Shown here piece after piece: positions 33,458 through 56,729 of a DNA stretch of 64,000 bases. The translations under genes were made by a program, and so were the position numbers. The notes under the pieces were generated by a model, which was not told where the DNA came from, made no database searches, and was given only the letters and a program-made list of their open reading frames with translations. The first letter of the stretch is position 1. Each line of letters begins with the position of its first letter. Location: positions 1-64,000 of the IMG/VR virus record IMGVR_UViG_3300020392_000009; one strand, 5' to 3'. Origin of the DNA: a virus.

Positions 33458-34843
33458 TCAAAGTAGATTTGTAATCTTACCCTGTCCTCTAAAGTATGAA
33501 CAACCAGTTTCACCAATAGTTCGGTAAAGTGCTTGGTTTCCTAGAGTTCCAACACCGAATGGGTTTCCGTTACTAATACCATCTTCAAAGTATTGAGTTG
33601 GTTTCATAACTGATAACCACAAATGGTCAGTATCTAGAATCAACATATCAGAAAGTCCAGTAGATAGAGAGTGGTGCTTTGTTGATGGCATAGCCGCAAC
33701 AGGAATTAGTGGGATATCGTAATAAGTAGAAACTCTAAATCCAACTTCTTGACCCTTTACACCACGAACACCGTTTACGGTTGGCACAATTTCTTTACCG
33801 TCCATGAATCTTTCTTGTGCTTGTAGCAAATCACTCAATGTTTGTAGAGTATCATATCCAGTTAGTATAACTTTTGGAGAACCACCGTTTTGTCGAATCT
33901 CTCTTAGAGTTTGGTTAATCAAACTTAGAGTCAAAGACCTTTGGCCACTTGCTGAGTAAGTTCCGTCATTTACAACTGCATTCATGAAAGAAGAGTTTGT
34001 TCCTGCTCTATCGCTGTTACCGAATAGAGTAGAAGTTTCTGCCTTTCCATTTGTCAAATCAGTATCGTCAAATGTTCCATTCTTAATCAAGTCGTTTGCT
34101 TTCATGTTTTGTAGTTCTGCGTTGCTTGAAACAATCTTTAGTAGAGAAGTATAGTTTCTTTCAATTGTAGTAACGCCCGAAGTAATTCCTCCATCAAAGT
34201 CATAGGCTTCTAGAGGCATAACTAGCATTTGGTTCTGAACTTCTGCATGGTGCTTACCCATATCTTCACGCATTTGCGCTCTAATGTCGCCAATACCATC
34301 ATCAATTTGTGCAAGTTCCATAGCAAGTTCGCTGAACTCAAATTGATGTGCAATAATCTTTGGGCTTGTAAATAGGGTAGAATACTTTGGTGCAATAGAA
34401 AACAATCCATCAGCATTAGTTCCTAGTTTAGCATTTTCAGGAACACCACCAATTAAATCTGCTTTAAGTGAACTTGCTCCAACAAGTGCATCAGAGTTTG
34501 ATGCTGTAGAATCAAGGTCAATAGATAGTGAATTTCCGCTACCACCAGCAGGTCTTTCTACCAATACTCTCCAACCACTTGAAACATAAGGTCTCTTTGA
34601 AATAACTGAAAGTGCATTACATTCTCTGTTTAGCATTGACCAAACTTTTTGACCAAATACTCGGTTATACAAAGCAGACCTATCTCCTATTGATGAAGTT
34701 CCGCTTCCTACTCCTAATGTGGTATCATGGCCACTGTGTAGTGCTTGAACTGCACCACTTTGTTTTAGCAATTGACCGCTAATGCCCGATAATCCGTATG
34801 TCTGTCTTTCTAAATCTGCTATTGTGTTAATATATCCTGTCAT
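33458..34843 (-). CDS. major capsid protein (HK97 fold)
   Basis: Follows protease-scaffold; YNRVFGQKVWSMLN, PKIIAHQFEFSE, GGSPKVILTG, GKITNL terminus like halovirus/magrovirus MCPs. Confidence 0.88.
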   Translation of the reverse strand: MTGYINTIADLERQTYGLSGISGQLLKQSGAVQALHSGHDTTLGVGSGTSSIGDRSALYNRVFGQKVWSMLNRECNALSVISKRPYVSSGWRVLVERPAGGSGNSLSIDLDSTASNSDALVGASSLKADLIGGVPENAKLGTNADGLFSIAPKYSTLFTSPKIIAHQFEFSELAMELAQIDDGIGDIRAQMREDMGKHHAEVQNQMLVMPLEAYDFDGGITSGVTTIERNYTSLLKIVSSNAELQNMKANDLIKNGTFDDTDLTNGKAETSTLFGNSDRAGTNSSFMNAVVNDGTYSASGQRSLTLSLINQTLREIRQNGGSPKVILTGYDTLQTLSDLLQAQERFMDGKEIVPTVNGVRGVKGQEVGFRVSTYYDIPLIPVAAMPSTKHHSLSTGLSDMLILDTDHLWLSVMKPTQYFEDGISNGNPFGVGTLGNQALYRTIGETGCSYFRGQGKITNLL

Positions 34844-34844
34844 C

Positions 34845-36140
34845 TTAATAACCTCCTACCATTTTGTGAATCTCTGACCAATCCATTTCAGCCAAATCTT
34901 CCATACTTGGGAGTTCTTCTTCTGCCGCCTTTTGTGCCTTTAGAATTGTTTCTTTTTCAGCAGTCAAAGACTTTCTTAGTTGAGTAAACTCATCTTTTAG
35001 AGATGCTATTTCGGCTTGAGCATCATATTGTGACTTTGCCAAAACATTTTCTCGGTTTGCTTTTTCTGCGTTAAATCTTGCACTAAATTGCTTTTCTAGG
35101 TTATCTAGAGCAATCTTTTCTAGTTGCTCTTGTCGGAAAGACTCGTATGCTTTCTCGATATTTAGGTTAGAAAGGTTTAGTGTATCTAATTCATTATTGT
35201 TAAATGCTTTAACAACAGGAAGTCCACTTGGCTTAGGATTGCCATTATCAATAACAATTCTATCAGCAGGTTCTCCAATTTCGACACCTGCTCCGTCTAA
35301 TGTAGCAACATAGGCTTTATCTGCCATTTTGTCACCATATGCACCTCTTTCCATGTCATCGGTAGGGACATCTTGCATTCTTTCCATGTCTTTCATTCTT
35401 TCCATGTCTTTCATCCTTTCCATGTCTTTCATAGATTCTTTTTCATCATCCATGTTTTCCATCATATTCTCATCTTCCATAGACTCTTTCATGGATTCTT
35501 TATCCTCCATCATTTCAGTGTCCATCATTTCGGCTTCTTCTTTTCGTAGCGTATTGACTTGCTCCATTAGAGTGTCAAGTTCCGCCAATGCTTTTTCTAA
35601 CTTGCTCATATTTTTCACCTGTTTATCTTGCTTTAAAATATCAAATCTTGCTTCGGGATTTATTCCTTTTTCACAAATTGTTACCTCATGCAATTCCAGT
35701 TTGCTTATTTCATTGTAATCTCCTAACTCCGGATGACTTTTCTTTACTTTTTGTAATGCCTGTCCTCCTATGCTAAATGACCTCAATGAACCTTTTCTTA
35801 CGCCTCTTCCTATTTCTTTGGCTTTTTCTATATCATCTCTTAACTTAATTACTACGAAGAAACCAACATCATCTACTTCTGTTTTCCACAATCTCCCCGT
35901 TTTATCTCGATATGATTTTACTACTTCTCCAACTTGAACATTTGAGTGATTTGTCATTACATTTCTAAATTTTGGATTCTGCATATATTTTACTACTGCT
36001 TCTTCTAGAGCCTTTAGTGTAATTAAATCGTTTTGTTTGTCTACGATTTCTATGCTTGCATATCCTCCAATCATTAAATCTTGATTACTTTTTAAGATGC
36101 TAAAGTCGTTGGCTCTATTACTTATCACCGCAGAACTCAT
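34845..36140 (-). CDS. prohead protease (HK97-family) fused to scaffold domain
   Basis: GYAS..VDKQND, NHSNVQVG (His), SFSIGG (Ser), LHEVTICEKGINPEA; acidic coiled-coil C-terminal half ending MDWSEIHKMVGGY. Confidence 0.9.
   Translation of the reverse strand: MSSAVISNRANDFSILKSNQDLMIGGYASIEIVDKQNDLITLKALEEAVVKYMQNPKFRNVMTNHSNVQVGEVVKSYRDKTGRLWKTEVDDVGFFVVIKLRDDIEKAKEIGRGVRKGSLRSFSIGGQALQKVKKSHPELGDYNEISKLELHEVTICEKGINPEARFDILKQDKQVKNMSKLEKALAELDTLMEQVNTLRKEEAEMMDTEMMEDKESMKESMEDENMMENMDDEKESMKDMERMKDMERMKDMERMQDVPTDDMERGAYGDKMADKAYVATLDGAGVEIGEPADRIVIDNGNPKPSGLPVVKAFNNNELDTLNLSNLNIEKAYESFRQEQLEKIALDNLEKQFSARFNAEKANRENVLAKSQYDAQAEIASLKDEFTQLRKSLTAEKETILKAQKAAEEELPSMEDLAEMDWSEIHKMVGGY
35379..35432 (-). 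repeat. 3 x 18-bp coding tandem repeat (MKDMER)
   Basis: TCTTTCCATGTCTTTCAT twice exact, third copy with one mismatch, in scaffold linker. Confidence 0.9.
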
Positions 36141-36171
36141 ACCTCTCGTTTTAATGATTTTAAACTTTCAC

Positions 36172-36179
36172 TATTTAAA
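36172..36179 (-). promoter_or_regulatory. candidate TATA box (TTTAAATA) for protease-MCP operon
   Basis: Intergenic gap about 32 nt upstream of protease start. Confidence 0.35.
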
Positions 36180-36197
36180 GAACACGGTATTTTCCAT

Positions 36198-38687
36198 TTA
36201 TTTTGGTATTTTAACAGAATTAAATTTATCTTCGTAAATATCCCAAATACCTTCATCTCCGGCTTTATCGGCAGGTTTTTGTTTATATCCAGTCCATGCT
36301 AGCCACATCTTTTTATCCTCAACAGGTAAATATCTAATATGTAACTTAGTTTCAAATTTGTTACCTTCTAAGAAATATTCGTGATATCCATTTCGTTGTA
36401 TTCCTAATTTTATCTTACCGTAATCAATGGTTTTTTTGTTTTGAACATTTTCTGAAACTTCGGCAGGGTATTTGCCTGCCGCACCAAATAAATCAAATAG
36501 TTCTTTTTCATCATCAACCTCAATAGTCCAGTGTAAATTTTTATCTTTTAATCTAATTGAAAATTGTATATTGTTATCTTTTCTAAGCGATATTTTGAAT
36601 TCGCCCTCTCTATATTTTTCAGGAGTTTCATATTTTTTAATTTCGTCTGCACCAAATTTAAATTCGGGGTCTGCCTTTATTTTATTGCTCTGTCCTTCTA
36701 ATATCGGTTCTCGTTGAACAGCCCAATCTCTTAGTTTACTTTGTTTAGCATCTAGTATATCTTGATACAAACTTCTATGATTAGTTATTAAGAATTCATG
36801 TAGTTGTCGAGTTGTTTGCTCTCCCTTCTTAGTTAGGAATTGATGAATAGCCGCAGTAAGTTCTCCCTGTTTTGTTTTCATTATCTCTATCGCTTTGCTT
36901 TTCCACATATCTAAATCTGCTAAAGCATTCTTTGACATTAAATTGTTTTCTTCAAAGCCATAAAGGGTAAAACCATTCATATCATATTTGAGAATAGCAG
37001 TAGTTTCTCCATGAACATAATCTGTTACCTTGATTCCTTTTTCCAATGCTGAAACATCATAGTTCAAAGACTTCTTTGTGTCTTTAGCAAGCATGGCTAA
37101 AGTAACTAATTTATCCGGATATTCTACTTCCGGAACTTCAATTACCTTAGCAGAAAATAAAGAGTAGCCGTTAGCCGTTTTCTTAACTTCATCTACCTTT
37201 ACTCTAATTATATCCCCGACATCAACTGCTATCTTAGTGTTTAGTGCTTTGCCTACATCTAGATATCTTATATCGTCTATTTCAACAGTATTAGGTATAT
37301 CGTCTAATATTGGGCCAACTCCTACACTATAAGAATGCAAGCCACTTTTTGTCTTAGTTTTACTAAGAACTACTACATCTAAGTCTACAAACTTTTTCCA
37401 TTTGACCCATTTAGGGTTCTTTTTAGTTCCCACATAATATATTGAAGTAATGTCTTTTATCATGACTCCTTCCGCAGTAGGAATATCCATTATGTCTTTA
37501 GAGTATTCCGCTACCTCCTTAATTGAATCAGCAAAGCGAGTATCTTTCTTTGAGGGGAAAAGTAGAACATCAGAAGAGTGCTGTGAATAATTATTAAACA
37601 GAGTCCTAATTCTACTATCTAATTCTTCTTCTAATAACATTTGAGAATCATGCCTCATAATATCAAAGACATGGGCTTTTAGAGTGGCTTCAGGATATTT
37701 ATTTTTAAATACATGAGCAATTGTATCAGCCCGATGCAGTGCTTCTTTACCATCAAATAGAATTAGTTCTGCATCCAAAATACACTCTCCGAAGTGTTTT
37801 GCTTTTAATTCTCTAACTATATCTTTACACTTTTCAGTAATGTCTTTTTGATTATATGAGTATATCTTTATATTACCGTCTATTTTATGCAGTTGTATTC
37901 TCATACCGTCATACTTTTCTTGAACAATATATTCTCCACTAAATCCTTTTAGTTCGTTCATATCATTTATCTCAAATATTCTATACATTGGTTTGTTGGG
38001 AATAATAAAGTCGCTTTGGGCTTTTTCTGCTTTCTTCATATCAATATCTAAAAGTTCATCCCAATCTTCTTCACTGTGTTGTGAAAAGTAAATTAACTCT
38101 AACATATCCATAGCGGCTTTAACTTTGGATTTGACCTTTTTAGAATCTTTATCATCACCATAGTTTTCTATTATGTATAGTGCCACATCATCCGGTTCTA
38201 AATCTAGTCCTGCTAGTCCATCGGTCAAAGTATCTTCTTCCATATCTTTTATTTGTAGGGTTTCTTTTCCTAGTGCATGAGTGTTATCTCTGATAGCATA
38301 ATGAACAAACTTAACCATAGATTCAGGATTATCTAGTAACTCTTCTAAGACACCTTCTCCAAATCTTTTAGCAAATGGGTCTATAACGACATCCGATTTA
38401 TATCTAATAAGTTTAATATCTTCATAAAGTTCTCTTGCTTGAGGAGATGTGGGGTCACTAACATCTTGATGTTCTAATAGATTCCTTTCTATAAAGTTCT
38501 TTAATTCTCTGCCTGCTACATTTAATTTATCATAAGATTCTCTAACTTGCTCTACAGCCTTTCTCCATTTGTGACCGTATTCTTTAGGGTCACTATTAGC
38601 AGATAAAAAGGCCACTCTAGTTATCTCAAATAATTTTACTAACTCTACCGATGAACGCTTGTCTTTTTCAAAAGAGCCGAGTTTCAA
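36198..38687 (-). CDS. lig: ATP-dependent DNA ligase with N- and C-terminal extra domains
   Basis: QEKYDGMR (motif I), LDAEL, HVFDI, EGVMIK, WVKWKK, OB fold. Confidence 0.9.
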   Translation of the reverse strand: MKLGSFEKDKRSSVELVKLFEITRVAFLSANSDPKEYGHKWRKAVEQVRESYDKLNVAGRELKNFIERNLLEHQDVSDPTSPQARELYEDIKLIRYKSDVVIDPFAKRFGEGVLEELLDNPESMVKFVHYAIRDNTHALGKETLQIKDMEEDTLTDGLAGLDLEPDDVALYIIENYGDDKDSKKVKSKVKAAMDMLELIYFSQHSEEDWDELLDIDMKKAEKAQSDFIIPNKPMYRIFEINDMNELKGFSGEYIVQEKYDGMRIQLHKIDGNIKIYSYNQKDITEKCKDIVRELKAKHFGECILDAELILFDGKEALHRADTIAHVFKNKYPEATLKAHVFDIMRHDSQMLLEEELDSRIRTLFNNYSQHSSDVLLFPSKKDTRFADSIKEVAEYSKDIMDIPTAEGVMIKDITSIYYVGTKKNPKWVKWKKFVDLDVVVLSKTKTKSGLHSYSVGVGPILDDIPNTVEIDDIRYLDVGKALNTKIAVDVGDIIRVKVDEVKKTANGYSLFSAKVIEVPEVEYPDKLVTLAMLAKDTKKSLNYDVSALEKGIKVTDYVHGETTAILKYDMNGFTLYGFEENNLMSKNALADLDMWKSKAIEIMKTKQGELTAAIHQFLTKKGEQTTRQLHEFLITNHRSLYQDILDAKQSKLRDWAVQREPILEGQSNKIKADPEFKFGADEIKKYETPEKYREGEFKISLRKDNNIQFSIRLKDKNLHWTIEVDDEKELFDLFGAAGKYPAEVSENVQNKKTIDYGKIKLGIQRNGYHEYFLEGNKFETKLHIRYLPVEDKKMWLAWTGYKQKPADKAGDEGIWDIYEDKFNSVKIPK

Positions 38688-38701
38688 AACAACCCCGCCC
38701 T

Positions 38702-38950
38702 TTAGAACTCATATGTATCTCCGGCTTGGCCGTAACCTACATTTGTTCCTTCTTTTTGACTTTCCGGAACATTTTCCTCTTCTTTTGCTTTAGGTCTTTT
38801 TAGTTTCACTGCTTCATTTTTATCTTCAGAGGGAAGCCTATTATTATCTGTAAGAGATTGATGTAGTATTTCTTTAACTTCTTTGGCCTTCTCTATGGTC
38901 ATAGAAATGACTCTTTCTTTCTTTGTTACTCTTTCCGGCATATACATCAT
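38702..38950 (-). CDS. hypothetical head-region protein
   Basis: 82 aa coupled ORF. Confidence 0.55.
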   Translation of the reverse strand: MMYMPERVTKKERVISMTIEKAKEVKEILHQSLTDNNRLPSEDKNEAVKLKRPKAKEEENVPESQKEGTNVGYGQAGDTYEF

Positions 38951-39177
38951 CCCATACTGTCTACCATTTTATGAATTTCGCTCCATTCCATGCCACTTAC
39001 TTCTTCCTTAGTATCTATTACTTTCATCGTAGGAGATGGGCTATTTACAACAACAAGACCGGATTTCATTAATAGATTATCGTCATTGTAAACCGTTCTT
39101 TCTAAGTTTTCTATCTTAGCAGTAAGGGCTTTTATTATCTCAAGTAGTTCTTTATTAATTGATTCTTCTTCACTCAT
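38947..39177 (-). CDS. mini-scaffold-like protein
   Basis: Coiled coil; C-terminus MEWSEIHKMV nearly identical to scaffold end MDWSEIHKMV. Confidence 0.6.
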   Translation of the reverse strand: MSEEESINKELLEIIKALTAKIENLERTVYNDDNLLMKSGLVVVNSPSPTMKVIDTKEEVSGMEWSEIHKMVDSMG

Positions 39178-39535
39178 TTTTCTCACCTTTTCTTTTTGGA
39201 TAAACTAAATCTCTAATCTGTCTATAAAGCAGTTCATACTCTTTACGAAGTTTCGTAGCAGTGGCGACTATATCAATATTCCTTTCATCCATAGATTTTA
39301 CTTTTTTATTTAATTTCTTATCAGATTTAGTAAAATCTAATGCGTCAATCATCTCTAGTAAATCACCTAATTTAGTAAAGTCTTGACCAAAAAATTCAGT
39401 TGGTTCAGCCGCTTGTAATGTTTTCTTTAATTTCTTTTTCTGTTTAGGGTTTAAAGAATCTAATATATTTTCAGACTTCTTTTCCTCTTTAGATATATCG
39501 AATGTTTTTCCCTCTTCATAATAATCCCATGTCAT
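39170..39535 (-). CDS. hypothetical head-region protein
   Basis: 121 aa helical ORF. Confidence 0.55.
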   Translation of the reverse strand: MTWDYYEEGKTFDISKEEKKSENILDSLNPKQKKKLKKTLQAAEPTEFFGQDFTKLGDLLEMIDALDFTKSDKKLNKKVKSMDERNIDIVATATKLRKEYELLYRQIRDLVYPKRKGEKNE

Positions 39536-39539
39536 TTTA

Positions 39540-41243
39540 TCAATCCCTTTTTTCTAACATATTTCTAACTATATTTATCTGTTCCTGTAAAGAATCAAAT
39601 CTAGTATTTACTCTGTCTACTAAATCTCCAATAAGTCTAACTTCTTTAGGGGTAGTATCTCCTATTCCTGCTCCTACTTTTCCATATATATTCAGGTCTA
39701 GACTTACACTCTTTTCGGCGTTTCCTATCCACTCTTCTAGAGATTGTTCGTTTTCTTTGTTTAGTTGTCTTAATATTCTGTCTATTTCCTTTACTCCCTG
39801 TGCGGCAAGTTTTACTTTATTACCTAATGTCACTTGGGCTTGGAAGATTTCTTGGTCACCTGTATATTCTCCAATTAGACCCCTAGCGTCACGAAATAGT
39901 GGCCTATATTTTTCTACGGTTTTTAATTTAGTTTCTATTTCTGCAAGTCTTTGTTTTTCTATTTCTAACTGACCTTCTATTTCTTTTTGAATGTCTTTTC
40001 TTGCTTCCTGTAATATTTCCGGCTGTGCAGACTGAAGTTCTTCCAACATATCTTCTATTTGTTTTTTGGTTAATCTTCTAGAAATATTTCCCAATTTTAC
40101 TCTAACTGCTCCCTCGGCCTCTTCGACTAACTGTCGTCTTGGGTCTGATTTTCTCAACTCCCTTCTTTTCTTGGCATCTCTTTTGTATCTCTCTAATCTA
40201 GCAGTTTCTTTTTTTCTTTCTCGTTCAATGCTTTCTGCTATTCTTCGTTGCTGTTCTTCTTCTTCAGGAGTTTTATCCCTCTTAGGTTTTTTATCAAGGG
40301 CTTCTCTAAACTTACTATCATCTACTAATGCCCTATCTGTATCATCGGAAGCAATATCCGGTAGTCTTTGTGCTACATATTCAGCAATTTTTCTTTGAAC
40401 AGTAGAATAGGCTAAGGTCAGAGCCTTCATTCTTCTTTCAATTAGTATTTCTAAGTCAGCATCCTTTAGAGTATCTAAATCATCAATCTGTTTAGTTAGT
40501 AATTCTTTAGCACTCATAAGTTCACTAAAAGCAAACATGCTTCTATTTAACGACTTAAGCATGTCCTGTTGTATTTCCTTCTGTCTTACTATTCCACCGG
40601 TAGGGTCGCCAATAACTATGGAACTAATCAGTCTATTCAGTTGTTGCCTACTTCTAGGTTTATCAATTAAAGAAGGAGGTATTTCACCGCTAAATCTTCT
40701 AGTATATAGCCCCTGTAAAAAAGTTAGAAAATCTTCGTCTGCACCTAGTTCGATATATTCCCGTTGTAGTTTTTTAACATCTACTAATTCAGAACTATCT
40801 CCTTCCCCTAATCTAAACTTTCCATTGATGATAAATTCTTCATAAGGTTGCTCCATCAAAAGATTTCTTCTACTCTGTAAAAACACCAATTTGTCGATAA
40901 TGATATTTATATTGGCCTTACTTATTTTCTTGAAAGTATTTCTAGACATTATATCATAAACGCCATCTTCTACTGTTCCTCTTTCTTTTATATCTTTCAT
41001 GTCTTGTAGATATTGATTAAGAACTCTAATATCTCTAGCAGGTTTTCTTCTCCGCTTTTTAGCCATATCGGTTTTTAGCCTTTCAGCCGCTTCCTCTACC
41101 TCAGTCTGTCTAGTTCTATCTTCTAGAGGGTCGAGTCCCTCACTAAAATTTTCTTCTAATTTTTTATCTTCTTCTAAGTCTCTTGCTATTTCGTCAGGTA
41201 TGGAGTCATCATCCTCATCTTCCTGTTTGAAAAACAAAGTCAT
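39540..41243 (-). CDS. large helical/coiled-coil head-region protein
   Basis: 567 aa, E/R/K-rich; GGGTGA RBS. Confidence 0.6.
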   Translation of the reverse strand: MTLFFKQEDEDDDSIPDEIARDLEEDKKLEENFSEGLDPLEDRTRQTEVEEAAERLKTDMAKKRRRKPARDIRVLNQYLQDMKDIKERGTVEDGVYDIMSRNTFKKISKANINIIIDKLVFLQSRRNLLMEQPYEEFIINGKFRLGEGDSSELVDVKKLQREYIELGADEDFLTFLQGLYTRRFSGEIPPSLIDKPRSRQQLNRLISSIVIGDPTGGIVRQKEIQQDMLKSLNRSMFAFSELMSAKELLTKQIDDLDTLKDADLEILIERRMKALTLAYSTVQRKIAEYVAQRLPDIASDDTDRALVDDSKFREALDKKPKRDKTPEEEEQQRRIAESIERERKKETARLERYKRDAKKRRELRKSDPRRQLVEEAEGAVRVKLGNISRRLTKKQIEDMLEELQSAQPEILQEARKDIQKEIEGQLEIEKQRLAEIETKLKTVEKYRPLFRDARGLIGEYTGDQEIFQAQVTLGNKVKLAAQGVKEIDRILRQLNKENEQSLEEWIGNAEKSVSLDLNIYGKVGAGIGDTTPKEVRLIGDLVDRVNTRFDSLQEQINIVRNMLEKRD

Positions 41244-41252
41244 CTAATCACC

Positions 41253-41477
41253 CTAGAATGGAATATTTTCTTTTTTTCCTCTCTGTTTAGGTGGAAGAGT
41301 TATCACATCGGGGATATCCGCACTACTAGGCCTTGATTTTGGTGTAGTGTCTTTTGGCAGTCCTACACTAAAATCTCTATTTTTAGTAGTCTTTCTACTT
41401 TCGTTATTATTAGCGGCTCTTACCTGTGCCAACTCTTTTCTTAGTCTTATTTCTTTTTGTCTATTATCTTCGGTCAT
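41253..41477 (-). CDS. hypothetical protein
   Basis: 74 aa, ATGA-coupled to portal. Confidence 0.55.
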   Translation of the reverse strand: MTEDNRQKEIRLRKELAQVRAANNNESRKTTKNRDFSVGLPKDTTPKSRPSSADIPDVITLPPKQRGKKENIPF

Positions 41478-43108
41478 GGTATTCTCCTCTCACTTCTTCT
41501 ATCTACATTTTGATTGCCAGCATCTTCGGGTAATCCTGTTAGTCGCTTATCCGGCCCTACACTCATAGAAGGTTTATTTCTTGTGGTTGCTGGATTTTCT
41601 TGTTTCTTTGAACCTTGTAATTGTTGTTCTTGCATTTGCCCCAATTGGCTTGCATCAATATTAGTTCCCGCATAAGGGTCTAATTCGACTTCATCTTCAC
41701 TAGAACCTTCTTGTGGAGGTTCTTCAACAGGTTCAGGCTTTTTGAAAGTAAAGTTTCCATCTTCATCCATTTCAACTTCAAAACCTAGATTCTTAGTAGA
41801 GGCCGCAATATTAACTTCGATTTCTCTTTTTCTTAATACTGCTATTTCATCTTCTTCTTCGCTCGGTGGTAGTTTTAGATTCCAGTCAGTAATGCCAAAT
41901 TGCTTAACTAAAAATGGAAATACATAATTGTTGTAAACATTCTGTGCCATTTGAACGGCTCTATTAGTTACTAATATCTGCATACCCTCATTATTCAATC
42001 CGCCACTAGTAGTATTATCTGCCATAAACACTTTACTAACCCCAAAGAAAGCAGAAATTCTATCTCTTAAATCATCCTTAACAGAAACATACTCCATTTC
42101 TTTTAGACTATCCATAAATTTAATCCATTCTACTGAACCTTTACCTTCTGCTTCTATACCCATAATAGGAATAAAGTGAGGGTCTTGTTCCATCTTTTCT
42201 TTTACGGCTTTCCAAAAAGATTGCATGGAGTCCATGTTTCTAGTTTGAACTGCTAATAATCCTCTAGGCATACGGCTCTTAGTGTAAGATGAATTAACAT
42301 AGTTCTCCATAGCAATAAGAGTCATTATATTATTAAATAAAGTAACAATAGGAGACTGACCATATAATCTAGAAGGACTATATTTACTAAAATGTAATAC
42401 TTCTCCTTTCAAGAAATACTGTTCTTCTCCAGTTGCCCTATTAACATAATGAACAGGGAATGTCTTAGCACCACACTGTTCACAAGGAACATGAGCGTCT
42501 TTTGAGAAAAATTCTCTATGATTAACACAAGTAAAAGCACTATTTCCTCTTTCTCCATATTCATCAGTGTAGATATACATTGTTGCAGGGTCGCCACGAT
42601 ATACTTCTTTGATTCGATGCATTCTAATATCACCATTACCATCTAAAAAGTATTCTTTTACCAATACGATGTAAGCGTCATCCATAACATTTAGGTCATC
42701 CTCTAATTGTTTTAGCACATCAATAAACAACTGCTCTGATTTATTGACATATCCCTCAATAAACTCCTCTGCATATTTTAGTTGGTCTACATCCGGAACT
42801 TTTAGTTTTTCACTACCACATCTAGAACATTCAGAGACAGGCCTTTGGTGTTTCTTTTTACAGTTTAAACACATAGCCTCGTATGCCTTTTCCCAAACAT
42901 ACCCTCTACGAAATATCTCTTGCTTTAATTGAGTAATACAGGTTCTAACAATTACCGACTGATTTACTATGTGGTAAATTAAAGGGGCAGTCATATGATA
43001 GGTATTTGGCCTCTCTTGTATTCCTATATTGTAGATTTGCCTATCAGCAGGTTTAGGAGTAGTTCTTCTAAATAAATTCCTAATTGAGAATCGTCTTTGC
43101 TCAACCAT
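41474..43108 (-). CDS. portal protein with two Zn-finger insertions
   Basis: EVLHF..YSPSRLYGQSPI, MPRGLL, RISAFFGVS portal motifs; CLNC..CSRC and CVNH..CEQC. Confidence 0.88.
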   Translation of the reverse strand: MVEQRRFSIRNLFRRTTPKPADRQIYNIGIQERPNTYHMTAPLIYHIVNQSVIVRTCITQLKQEIFRRGYVWEKAYEAMCLNCKKKHQRPVSECSRCGSEKLKVPDVDQLKYAEEFIEGYVNKSEQLFIDVLKQLEDDLNVMDDAYIVLVKEYFLDGNGDIRMHRIKEVYRGDPATMYIYTDEYGERGNSAFTCVNHREFFSKDAHVPCEQCGAKTFPVHYVNRATGEEQYFLKGEVLHFSKYSPSRLYGQSPIVTLFNNIMTLIAMENYVNSSYTKSRMPRGLLAVQTRNMDSMQSFWKAVKEKMEQDPHFIPIMGIEAEGKGSVEWIKFMDSLKEMEYVSVKDDLRDRISAFFGVSKVFMADNTTSGGLNNEGMQILVTNRAVQMAQNVYNNYVFPFLVKQFGITDWNLKLPPSEEEDEIAVLRKREIEVNIAASTKNLGFEVEMDEDGNFTFKKPEPVEEPPQEGSSEDEVELDPYAGTNIDASQLGQMQEQQLQGSKKQENPATTRNKPSMSVGPDKRLTGLPEDAGNQNVDRRSERRIP

Positions 43109-43160: not shown

Positions 43161-43499
43161 TCAACTTCCCTTTCGCCACTTTTTATTTTTCTTTTCTTTT
43201 GTTTTTCTAGGACTCCATTTTACTTTATCAGCCCAATAAGCCGCAGACATTTTACCCCTCTTAATATTCTTTTTATGTCTACTTTTGAAAGCCCTTCGCT
43301 GTCCTGCGGTTTGATTTGTTTTTACTCCTTGTTGCCCAAACCTAATTGTTTTTACTTTATCACCATCTTTTACAACAACAATGTGAGATTTACTTGGGTG
43401 TTTTGGAGTTCTTTTTGGCTTGCTGAATCCACTTACTCCGGCTCTAGCAAGAGCAGGATGTTTCTTCTTCTTCTTGAGAATATCCATCCAATTACTCAT
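43161..43499 (-). CDS. basic tagged protein (DUF6321-like)
   Basis: MSNWMDILK tag; KTIRFGQQG..RRAFKSRH..SAAYWA..KW. Confidence 0.6.
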   Translation of the reverse strand: MSNWMDILKKKKKHPALARAGVSGFSKPKRTPKHPSKSHIVVVKDGDKVKTIRFGQQGVKTNQTAGQRRAFKSRHKKNIKRGKMSAAYWADKVKWSPRKTKEKKNKKWRKGS

Positions 43500-44064
43500 A
43501 AGCATCACCTAACATATATCCTATTTTTTTTCCCGCCTCTATATCGCTTGGATAGTGGCTTCCCATCTGTATTCTAGATAATGATATTCTATCAGCCATT
43601 TGTTTTAATTGTTTCTTCTTTTCTGGAAACTTTCTACCTAATACTCTTTCTAGCCCATGTGCTAGCATAGAGTGACCACTAGGAAAAGCAGGAGTATCAT
43701 CAGTTGTTGTTTTTGTTGAGGATATTTTATCACTTACTTGATATGGTCTAGGCCTCATATACTTCATTTTTTCAGTAATAGCGTAGTGATTCACATCTAA
43801 CATAAAATCTTTATAATCTTCTTTGTTTGCTTTAACAATTTTAAACATCTCTACATCGGGTTTTAAATCAGCATCCTTCATTTCTTTTGGTTCAAGTTTC
43901 TTTTCTTTCATAACCTTTAGAACTTCGGGTATTTCTTTTTCTTCTTTAGGGTAACTCATTTCGGGTATCTTTATTTTTATTGATGGATTTCTCTGTAGTG
44001 ATTCTTTTCTATTAGCGGCAAGTTTTCCTTGCCACTTTCTTTTGAGAATATCCATCCAACTCAT
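43492..44064 (-). CDS. PAP2-family phosphatase (soluble), tagged
   Basis: KxxxxRPRP, FPSGH, SRIQMGSHYPSD; starts MSWMDILK. Confidence 0.85.
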   Translation of the reverse strand: MSWMDILKRKWQGKLAANRKESLQRNPSIKIKIPEMSYPKEEKEIPEVLKVMKEKKLEPKEMKDADLKPDVEMFKIVKANKEDYKDFMLDVNHYAITEKMKYMRPRPYQVSDKISSTKTTTDDTPAFPSGHSMLAHGLERVLGRKFPEKKKQLKQMADRISLSRIQMGSHYPSDIEAGKKIGYMLGDAYE

Positions 44065-48847: not shown

Positions 48848-49351
48848 TTAATACCTCTTTAAAATTAAATGCCAAGATTTTTCTATCTTATTAGCAGGTT
48901 TAATTCCCCAAACCCGCCCTTTTTCCTTAGCATAATCCGTTATTTTTTTAATTATATTTTTAGGAATAGAATTTAACAGACTTGGTTCTATATTTGTTAT
49001 CTGCCAACCAGTTTTTTCGTTAGCCGCTATCCAACTTGGTGCATTGATGAATACAGCAAGTAGGGGCTTATTTGGAATAACGCTAGCACGATAAGGAACT
49101 AAATCAGTCATGTGGCCTCTAGGAGAACCTTCAATAGATTGAGTTCCTCCAACTATTACATAATCGGGATGCTCCGTCCAACCAGTAGTGGAAATAGTCT
49201 TGTCATTATCATCAACTCTAATAATCCATTTGTTTAAATCGTAAAAAGGAGGTGGTGAACCTGCTCTAACATAAGGCTCATTCGGATTATCAGTATTCCA
49301 CCTTTCTTTCATCTCCTCGAAAGAAAAAATCTCATCCAAAACTTTCGGCAT
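48848..49351 (-). CDS. hypothetical protein with C-terminal tag; weak GNAT-like pattern
   Basis: Ends IEKSWHLILKRY. Confidence 0.55.
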   Translation of the reverse strand: MPKVLDEIFSFEEMKERWNTDNPNEPYVRAGSPPPFYDLNKWIIRVDDNDKTISTTGWTEHPDYVIVGGTQSIEGSPRGHMTDLVPYRASVIPNKPLLAVFINAPSWIAANEKTGWQITNIEPSLLNSIPKNIIKKITDYAKEKGRVWGIKPANKIEKSWHLILKRY

Positions 49352-55337: not shown

Positions 55338-56729
55338 TTAATTCCTCAAAATATCCATCCATGATTTCAATACTATTCTTTCATCTGTGTTAGGTGCATT
55401 CATACTTTGTAAATCTCTAGTTCGAGTAATCACCGATTGGTTTAGCAAAGCCTTCATAGCATTCTTTGTAAGTTTGAAATTTATTTTTCTAACATCTGAT
55501 AGATTAAACATATCCATTATTTTATTTCTAGAAGTGGGGGAGAAATCAAAATTCTTTTCTCTTAACATTCTAAGAGACTGGGAAGTTTGAAAGTCATTAT
55601 CGTTATATAGTGAAGTATTCCTAAGTAAAGCCTGTGCATACCTCTTTATCTCCGGTATCTTTGCTAATGCTACTGCCTGTGTCTTTTTACTAACAGGAAC
55701 TACTATGTCTTGTAGTCCCTCACTTCTAAAATCAAAGCCCTTCTTTTTATCCTTGATAAGATTCTGCCATGCGGGTTTTCCATCCGGTGCTTTAGATGTT
55801 CCTCTTATCTTTAGTGCTTGCTTAACAAACATAACAATAACTTCGGGTGTAGCCTTACAAGTCACCATTCCAACTTCTCCCGCAGGAGCATCCTTTGTAT
55901 TTAGTTTAGTCAATCTTTCAATTGCCTGCTTTTCTTTGTTACCTATTTTAAATTCAGTTGATTCAAACTCTCTTCTTAATTTATTTACTAATAGTTTACC
56001 ATCTTTCCAAAACGCAGTATTTCTAGTGGACTTAACAAAAAAAGTTTCAAAGGCGTTTAACTTTATCCAATCTATAAAATCATCTTCTCCTATCGGTGCG
56101 CTCCCTACCTCTATTGGTTCTGATACTGCTTGTATTGCATCTTCTAAAATATATTTAAGCCCTCTAGAATCAAACTCGGAACTGGATTTTTCATTGTATA
56201 ATGCTTGATGGGGAATATTTCCGCCATCCATTGTTCCTGTAAACCAAGCGTCGGGGGCTTTAGTTGTGTTATATTTTTTAGCATATTTAGCAGTAGCATA
56301 GTGACCTGTTATTGTTTTAGGTTTCATTGGATTTCCTCTAGAATCTTTTCTAGGCTCACTAAAAACGATAAATGCGGGGTCTAGGGCTATTCCTTCTTTA
56401 CCTACATCCTTTCCTGTTTCAAATAAATCATCCAATACCTTTGCCAAATCAGTAATATCTTCTAAGTCATCATCGCTAAGATAGTTTTTTTGTAAAACTT
56501 TATCCATTGTTTTGATAGCCTCTACTGCCCCTTGACCTATTGCGCCAGCCCTTCTGTTTCTACTCTTTTCTCTAACATAAGTTCCAGTAAGATGATTCTT
56601 TAGAAAGTCAAAAAGAGTTGGAACATTCTTCACTTGCATTTTGCTACCGGAAGTATTCAAACAGGTTTGTTTCCACTTAGCATACTCATTAACAAAATCA
56701 TACTTATCGAGGTTTTGATTGATTTCCAT
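55338..56729 (-). CDS. hypothetical protein with C-terminal tag
   Basis: Ends VLKSWMDILRN; start placed at MEINQ after upstream small ORF (uncertain). Confidence 0.6.
   Translation of the reverse strand: MEINQNLDKYDFVNEYAKWKQTCLNTSGSKMQVKNVPTLFDFLKNHLTGTYVREKSRNRRAGAIGQGAVEAIKTMDKVLQKNYLSDDDLEDITDLAKVLDDLFETGKDVGKEGIALDPAFIVFSEPRKDSRGNPMKPKTITGHYATAKYAKKYNTTKAPDAWFTGTMDGGNIPHQALYNEKSSSEFDSRGLKYILEDAIQAVSEPIEVGSAPIGEDDFIDWIKLNAFETFFVKSTRNTAFWKDGKLLVNKLRREFESTEFKIGNKEKQAIERLTKLNTKDAPAGEVGMVTCKATPEVIVMFVKQALKIRGTSKAPDGKPAWQNLIKDKKKGFDFRSEGLQDIVVPVSKKTQAVALAKIPEIKRYAQALLRNTSLYNDNDFQTSQSLRMLREKNFDFSPTSRNKIMDMFNLSDVRKINFKLTKNAMKALLNQSVITRTRDLQSMNAPNTDERIVLKSWMDILRN

Follow-up and report, generated by a model that had tools for sequence, protein, structure and literature searches.

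Does one docking peptide serve both the scaffold and the cargo of a virus head? The question is raised by a 64,000-nucleotide stretch of DNA (the window; positions 1 to 64,000 of IMG/VR record IMGVR_UViG_3300020392_000009, a virus record of 91,671 bases with its late genes on the minus strand), in which a prohead protease with a fused scaffold tail and a second, small protein, here called the mini-scaffold, both end in a short tryptophan peptide, and about 24 other minus-strand open reading frames (ORFs) begin with the peptide M-x-W-x-D-I-L-K, here called the tag. A preliminary description of this DNA had proposed that the tag is a mimic of the end of the scaffold, and that cargo proteins in this way reach the same pocket of the major capsid protein (MCP). 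The virus is a magrovirus, as set out below; magroviruses, none of which has been cultured, are among the commonest viruses of archaea in surface seawater, and we know of no experimental work on how their heads are built.

The analysis showed that the scaffold and the mini-scaffold, a protein of 76-110 aa, carry one portable C-terminal module of about 20 residues which is conserved well beyond the present virus, and that the cargo tag M-x-W-x-D-I-L-K at N-termini is a peptide in its own right, specific to the clade of this virus (clade A). The genes and peptides concerned are the following:

33458..34843, minus strand: MCP, HK97-type, identified by PF17236 SU10_MCP and phrog_24667; presumed partner of the C-end module.
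34845..36140, minus strand: prohead protease (S78) fused to the scaffold tail, 431 aa, with Pfam PF04586 at residues 19-172 and a match to the PHROG head maturation protease.
34848..34910, minus strand: C-terminal module of the scaffold, about 21 residues, SMEDLAE-MD-WSEIHKMV-GGY, delimited by invariant residues, hhalign and a structure model.
38947..39177, minus strand: mini-scaffold, 76 aa, assigned by synteny and family, with an N-terminal helix, an LLMK-SG-hydrophobic-V segment, a linker and the C-end module.
38950..38991, minus strand: C-end module of the mini-scaffold (MEWSEIHKMVDSMG), with W65, I68 and H69 invariant and M63 and M71 conserved to at least 90%.

The protease-scaffold fusion (34845-36140, minus strand) has the C-terminal sequence ...MDWSEIHKMVGGY; the 431-aa ORF is read to its end as ...LAEMDWSEIHKMVGGY, with the motif codons at 34848-34886. 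Its membership of Peptidase_S78 was supported by PF04586 (36.6 bits, against a cut-off of 21) and by the PHROG head maturation protease match (7e-15). The small ORF extends over 38947-39186 on the minus strand and ends in ...SGMEWSEIHKMVDSMG; its ATG is at 39177, and the resulting 76-aa protein (38947-39177) has the C-terminal sequence ...MEWSEIHKMVDSMG. Both ends read exactly as they had been described, and both match literally the pattern W-x-[DE]-I-x-K found at the N-terminus of about 19-24 minus-strand ORFs.

In clade A, represented by 80 related IMG/VR loci (MCP 64-97% identical), the ORF just before the MCP always ends in ...LPxM[DE]ELAEMDW[SAN]DIHKM[VA]GG.., and in the loci with enough flank the small ORF ends in M[DE]W[SAG][DE]IHKM... 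The sister clade, clade B, was reached via a representative 45% identical to the scaffold; both genes are present there, the scaffold ending in MSW[DE]EVH[QAN]LA.. and the mini-scaffold in M[ST]W[EA][ED]IH[ED]MA... The core of the module is M-x-W-x-[DE]-[IV]-H-x-[ML]-[AV], in which the His, at position +4 counted from the Trp, is invariant and the Lys (+5) is not. Scaffold residues P411, M419, W421 and H425 were invariant in 46 scaffolds from the two clades. The two C-ends resemble each other to an extent far above chance, as judged from 80 + 74 related loci and 118 of 120 members of the mini-scaffold family. The motif also reaches more distant proteins: among 117 distant S78 homologues of at least 300 aa, 20 (17%) have W-x-[DE]-[IVL] within their last 35 residues, when about 1% is expected, and these 20 carry His at +4 in 12 cases and Lys at +5 in only 4.

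Profile-profile comparison (hhalign) of scaffold and mini-scaffold aligned the last 21 columns alone (prob 93.8, E 1.7e-7), and the two proteins therefore share a module and are not paralogous over their whole length: the same module stands on a second, small protein that is otherwise non-homologous. The two copies use different synonymous codons (TCA/AGC, GAG/GAA, CAC/CAT), which argues for selection and conservation at the peptide level; synonymous sites vary among the tags too. A DNA-level signal, a DNA repeat or a recent duplication behind the likeness was rejected because of this synonymous variation.

The AlphaFold2 (AF2) model of the 431-residue fusion (mean predicted local distance difference test, pLDDT, 66.6) contains a confident protease core at residues 14-156, a low-confidence linker at 160-178 and long helices at 180-254 and 325-409. 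The C-terminus is modelled as a helix (413-418), a turn and a second helix (421-428, corresponding to WSEIHKMV), the pLDDT of this block being about 62-74; the extreme C-terminus of the scaffold is thus an amphipathic helix in the model, as it is in 80alpha. None of 21 long homologues, screened for natural protease-scaffold-MCP fusions, contained an internal copy of the motif. The acidic middle of the scaffold (residues ~220-255; 35380-35480, minus strand) holds a tandem repeat rich in Met, Glu, Asp and Lys (MERMKD three times), the length and sequence of which vary strongly among relatives.

The mini-scaffold was found 4-5 kb upstream of the MCP in each related locus with sufficient flank, and it belongs to a family of 527 clusters from marine metagenomes, none of which has a Pfam domain or a name. 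The core M-x-W-x-[ED]-I-H-x-M-[AV] is present in 118 of 120 family members; in these 118 the W, I and H are conserved at 100%, the Met residues at -2 and +6 at 96-97%, and position +5 holds an acidic residue in 75% and a Lys in 22%. Residues G40, V42, P47, W65, I68 and H69 were invariant in 39 mini-scaffolds. The possibility that the gene is a decaying fragment of the scaffold gene was discarded, since the gene keeps its syntenic position in both clades, its product has a conserved N-terminal helix and G40/V42/P47 of its own, and the family numbers 527 clusters. In clade-B mini-scaffolds (locus L081, 3338-3667, and others) a half-repeat of the motif lies directly upstream of it, giving NEEIH-x-M[ST]WEEIHEMA. 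A separate conserved N-terminal Trp motif was seen in the 121-aa protein adjoining the mini-scaffold (39170-39535, minus strand), which starts MTWDYYEEG; a start of the form M-[ST]-W-D-[YF]-Y-[GE] recurs in more than 25 related loci.

All of the approximately 24 ORFs that begin with the tag are located in the late block (29.7-64 kb) and none in the replication block, so that the tag is a short common leader on many unrelated proteins near the head genes, as in T4. A strict DNA pattern for the tag gave 3-11 matches per genome in five of five complete clade-A genomes, none in five of five clade-B genomes and no control match. A position-specific scoring matrix (PSSM) was built from the non-redundant tags of the window, an alternative, rule-based tag set was also scored, and 19,611 8-mers were ranked. 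True tags scored 18 bits or more; the two C-ends scored 9.1 bits (6.4 with the rule-based set) and ranked about 29-32 of 19,611. The residues that give them this score are the start Met, Trp, Ile and Lys: when the start Met, Ile and Lys were removed, the C-ends fell to -5.4 bits and rank 2,329. The conserved positions also differ. His(+4), 100% conserved in the C-ends, is essentially absent from the tags, which have Leu or Ile there, and Lys(+5), the most constant tag residue after Trp, is variable and usually acidic in the C-ends. The C-ends resemble the tag only moderately.

The tag profile and sequence reading also located true tags at the C-termini of two proteins:

55341..55364, minus strand: true tag at the end of a 484-aa protein, IVLK-SWMDILRN*, found by sequence reading.
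48851..48877, minus strand: true tag at the end of a 172-aa protein, IEK-SWHLILKRY*, found by sequence reading and the tag profile.

Orthologues of the 484-aa protein in five genomes end in hydrophobic-x-K followed by a short Trp peptide. Because true tags stand at C-termini too, a docking peptide that works independently of its position is plausible. Among the few tagged proteins that could be annotated is one of 190 aa (MSWMDILK..., 43492-44064, minus strand), which has a PAP2-superfamily phosphatase domain (4e-11). The 567-aa coiled-coil protein encoded between portal and mini-scaffold (39540-41243, minus strand) starts MTLFFKQED and its 631-aa homologue in locus L024 (3259-5151) starts MWQNLLKED; the tag seems to have been gained or lost on this otherwise conserved gene of the head module.

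Clade B has a tag of its own, [AP]-F-[DE]-x-A-W-x-[VLI]-[LI]-K, found at the start of 8-13 genes in each genome, arranged in tandem blocks (locus L155, 2653-8974, and locus L159, genome G003, 92115-92733; locus L161, 248-7483, of genome G002). It is unlike the clade-A tag save for the Trp and the hydrophobic-L-K end. On a profile built from 22 clade-B tags, true tags scored 18-31 bits, the clade-B scaffold end -10.4 (rank 1,728 of 61,401) and the clade-B mini-scaffold end -3.2. Tag and scaffold end thus neither share their conserved determinants nor co-vary across lineages: the tail has been kept and the tag replaced in the sister clade. This would be unexpected if both had to fit one pocket, and the comparison of the clades speaks against mimicry as a general mechanism. 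The co-variation for which the preliminary description suggested looking was not seen, and its proposal of a tag that copies the scaffold end and thereby reaches the same MCP pocket is not supported, in view of the differing His(+4) and Lys(+5) determinants, the unlike clade-B peptides and the loss of likeness without Met, Ile and Lys. What it said of a conserved C-terminal helix common to scaffold and mini-scaffold, like the known coat-binding scaffold ends of the 80alpha scaffolding protein and CpmB (PMC5644958), was borne out, and the interpretation as a whole is partly supported.

Both clade-specific tags end in hydrophobic-[LI]-K, and this string recurs at other places in the head proteins:

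35631..35654, minus strand: EARFDILK at the protease/scaffold junction, candidate autoprocessing site; F166, I168, L169 and K170 are invariant in both clades.
34938..34952, minus strand: ETILK (K401), about 20-30 residues before the C-end, a putative cleavage site that could free the tail module; K401 is invariant in 46 scaffolds.
34763..34771, minus strand: L25-L26-K27 in the N-arm of the MCP, a putative maturation cut site; invariant in 24 clade-A MCPs.

The junction peptide EARFDILK lies in the low-confidence linker of the AF2 model and scored 9.1-9.5 bits on the tag PSSM, at least as high as the C-ends. At the position of L25-L26-K27 the clade-B MCP has the aligned sequence ...SELLK-AD, and the C-terminal tags are always preceded by hydrophobic-x-K. 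The recurrence of hydrophobic-L-K in the tags, the junction, the K401 site and the MCP N-arm would fit a Lys-directed cut by the S78 protease, in which case the tags resemble T4 capsid-targeting leaders; at the level of sequence, it suggests removable leaders of the T4 kind. The first 17 residues of the MCP precede the candidate cut at K27 and, over residues 4-17 (34795-34834, minus strand), Y4, I5, N6, T7, D10, L11, E12, Y16 and G17 are invariant, which makes this segment as conserved as the core of the fold. It may be a short propeptide serving as a scaffold-binding element. The MCP has more than 596 relatives in IMG/VR, 24 of which were used here.

These observations are best accounted for by a docking module shared by scaffold and mini-scaffold, with the tag as a separate, removable loading leader, an explanation for which the chances seem to us about evenly balanced. 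The C-end module would serve for docking, anchoring both proteins to a single partner within the procapsid, by analogy with 80alpha and CpmB most likely the inner face or the N-arm of the HK97-type MCP. In that case the mini-scaffold would be a further core or scaffold component encoded by the virus, using the same sites as the scaffold. The tag would act as a removable loading leader of the type of the phage T4 capsid-targeting sequence (CTS), its invariant hydrophobic-L-K end being the probable cutting site of the S78 protease, and its likeness to the clade-A scaffold end would be shallow, at most a remnant of shared ancestry.

Several observations weigh against this explanation. The contact between module and MCP is a presumed one, the AF2 model of the MCP monomer (mean pLDDT 39.7) being too poor for any pocket to be described. 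In sequence the module resembles neither the 80alpha hook (RIIK) nor the scaffold end of P22. HCTV-1, a cultured halovirus relative, lacks the motif, the end of its gp111, ...KSWEEEDD..., not being a convincing copy. Hydrophobic-L-K is a common tripeptide in this Lys-, Ile- and Leu-rich proteome, and one occurrence, the N-terminal SILK of the protease, is modelled by AF2 as a strand of the fold, so that some occurrences need not be cut sites. Finally, the coincidence of Met(-2), an acidic residue at +2 and Ile(+3) between the clade-A C-end and the tag would have no explanation were the two motifs unrelated.

That coincidence is what the proposed mimicry would account for: the tag would copy the coat-binding helix of the scaffold, and tagged proteins would dock, as encapsulin cargo does, in the same MCP pocket as the ends of scaffold and mini-scaffold. 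Clade-A tag and C-ends do both fit M-x-W-x-[DE]-I-x-K, the C-ends rank around 30th among all the 8-mers, their Met(-2), conserved at 96-100%, falls exactly on the start Met of the tags, and the C-terminal tags indicate that position would be no obstacle. We nevertheless regard such docking as decidedly improbable, given that clade B retains the scaffold end beside a tag unlike it (-10.4 bits), that the invariant His(+4) of the C-ends is essentially missing from the tags and the Lys(+5) fixed in the tags is mostly an acidic residue in the mini-scaffolds, that the likeness vanishes without Met, Ile and Lys, and that the protease/scaffold junction fits the tag profile at least equally well. The same low expectation applies to the fuller version, in which the eight-residue clade-A tag is a functional copy of the scaffold docking helix, cargo, scaffold and mini-scaffold compete for one site of the shell (or core), and the protease later clips the tags. 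The identical M-x-W-x-acidic-I register could also be historical: a duplication of the tail-coding segment onto gene starts may have given rise to the clade-A tag, which then diverged into a protease substrate or leader, so that the likeness would have no present function. Codon usage bears no DNA-level trace of such an event, the clade-B tags are in a different register and no intermediates were found, and we consider this descent very unlikely.

A further alternative concerns not the tag but the partner of the module, which might connect the scaffold with the mini-scaffold, or both of them with a further core component (portal or protease domain), in place of the MCP, forming a T4-like internal core to which the tags would bind. 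Two different proteins, both with coiled-coil-like helices, carry the module, and their ends change in step between the clades, K(+5) for example being present in clade A and not in B; T4 internal proteins, moreover, go to the scaffolding core and not to the shell (PMC3012670). On the other hand, in the systems that have been solved, scaffold C-ends shared in this way attach to the coat protein (PMC5644958), and no complementary conserved motif was seen in portal or protease. We judge a partner other than the MCP to be unlikely.

The closest precedent for the shared module comes from phage 80alpha, whose scaffolding protein (gp46) has in common with SaPI1 CpmB a C-terminal helix-and-hook (RIIK) of 16-21 residues, which binds the N-arm and the A/P cleft of the MCP (PMC5644958). 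As in the present virus, a full scaffold and a small helical protein (about 72 aa in CpmB) share only an amphipathic-helix module of about 16-21 residues at the C-terminus. CpmB, however, comes from a pirate element that competes with its helper, whereas the magrovirus encodes both proteins and they are conserved together in all relatives. The magrovirus scaffold is also fused to the protease, its ends, ...WSEIHKMVGGY and ...WSEIHKMVDSMG, lack the RIIK hook, and the binding of its module is predicted by analogy.

For the tag, the comparison is with the CTS of T4, a leader that loads diverse internal proteins (and Alt) into the scaffolding core and is then clipped off by the gp21 prohead protease (PMC3012670). 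The magrovirus leader is likewise short, stands on many unrelated, fast-evolving proteins near the head genes, and closes with a string also seen where head proteins are likely to be processed. The differences are that the magrovirus protease is of the S78 family and not of the gp21 family, that its candidate cut falls after Lys (hydrophobic-L-K) and the T4 cut after Glu, and that magrovirus tags also occur at C-termini and differ between sister clades. The likeness to encapsulin cargo-loading peptides, drawn in the preliminary description, is that of a short peptide at a protein terminus through which cargo would attach to the inner surface of a shell with the HK97 fold; there is no sequence likeness, and the magrovirus tags appear removable.

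A C-terminal segment is the signal for procapsid incorporation also in the targeting tail of the HK97 gp4 protease and in the helix-turn-helix of the P22 scaffold, the partner of the HK97 protease tail being the delta domain of the MCP. Neither is related in sequence to the module, and the magrovirus MCP has no delta domain save a short conserved N-terminal segment. Coat-binding scaffold ends, and a small protein sharing such an end, are already known. New are the motif, the unannotated mini-scaffold family conserved alongside the scaffold in an uncultured archaeal virus group, and the use of different tags by two sister clades whose scaffold end stays the same. A full-text search of the literature with the motif strings returned only unrelated frog peptides, and the description of the magroviruses (PMC5434244) mentions neither a scaffold motif nor a tag.

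The assignment to the magroviruses (viruses of Poseidoniales) rests on the marine genome class of about 90-100 kb and on the haloarchaeal-like protease. The relatives of the window are marine contigs of 92-107 kb, and in GenBank the protease has phage relatives only among Haloarcula tailed viruses (about 30% identity); magroviruses were described with the same signature, their MCP, portal and protease being nearest to those of haloarchaeal tailed viruses (PMC5434244). The portal gene of the window was located by Pfam and PHROG scans:

41474-43108, minus strand: portal, by library match.

Within the head-assembly block, between mini-scaffold and protease-scaffold, lies the gene of an 829-aa ATP-dependent DNA ligase (36198-38687, minus strand), which is syntenic in related loci (832-836 aa).

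If the tag were, after all, a functional copy of the docking helix, these very abundant archaeal viruses of the ocean would have a natural programmable system for protein loading, and a mechanistic link would exist between phage scaffolds, T4-type targeting leaders and encapsulin loading peptides. The distinction between tail and tag matters for design: if the tags are leaders removed by the protease, their likely partner is the core or the protease and not the shell. The module itself is a concrete 20-residue peptide candidate for capsid binding, and it sets apart an unannotated family of 527 clusters, putatively a further scaffold or core protein. The two sister clades, with different tags and the same scaffold end, constitute a natural swap experiment.

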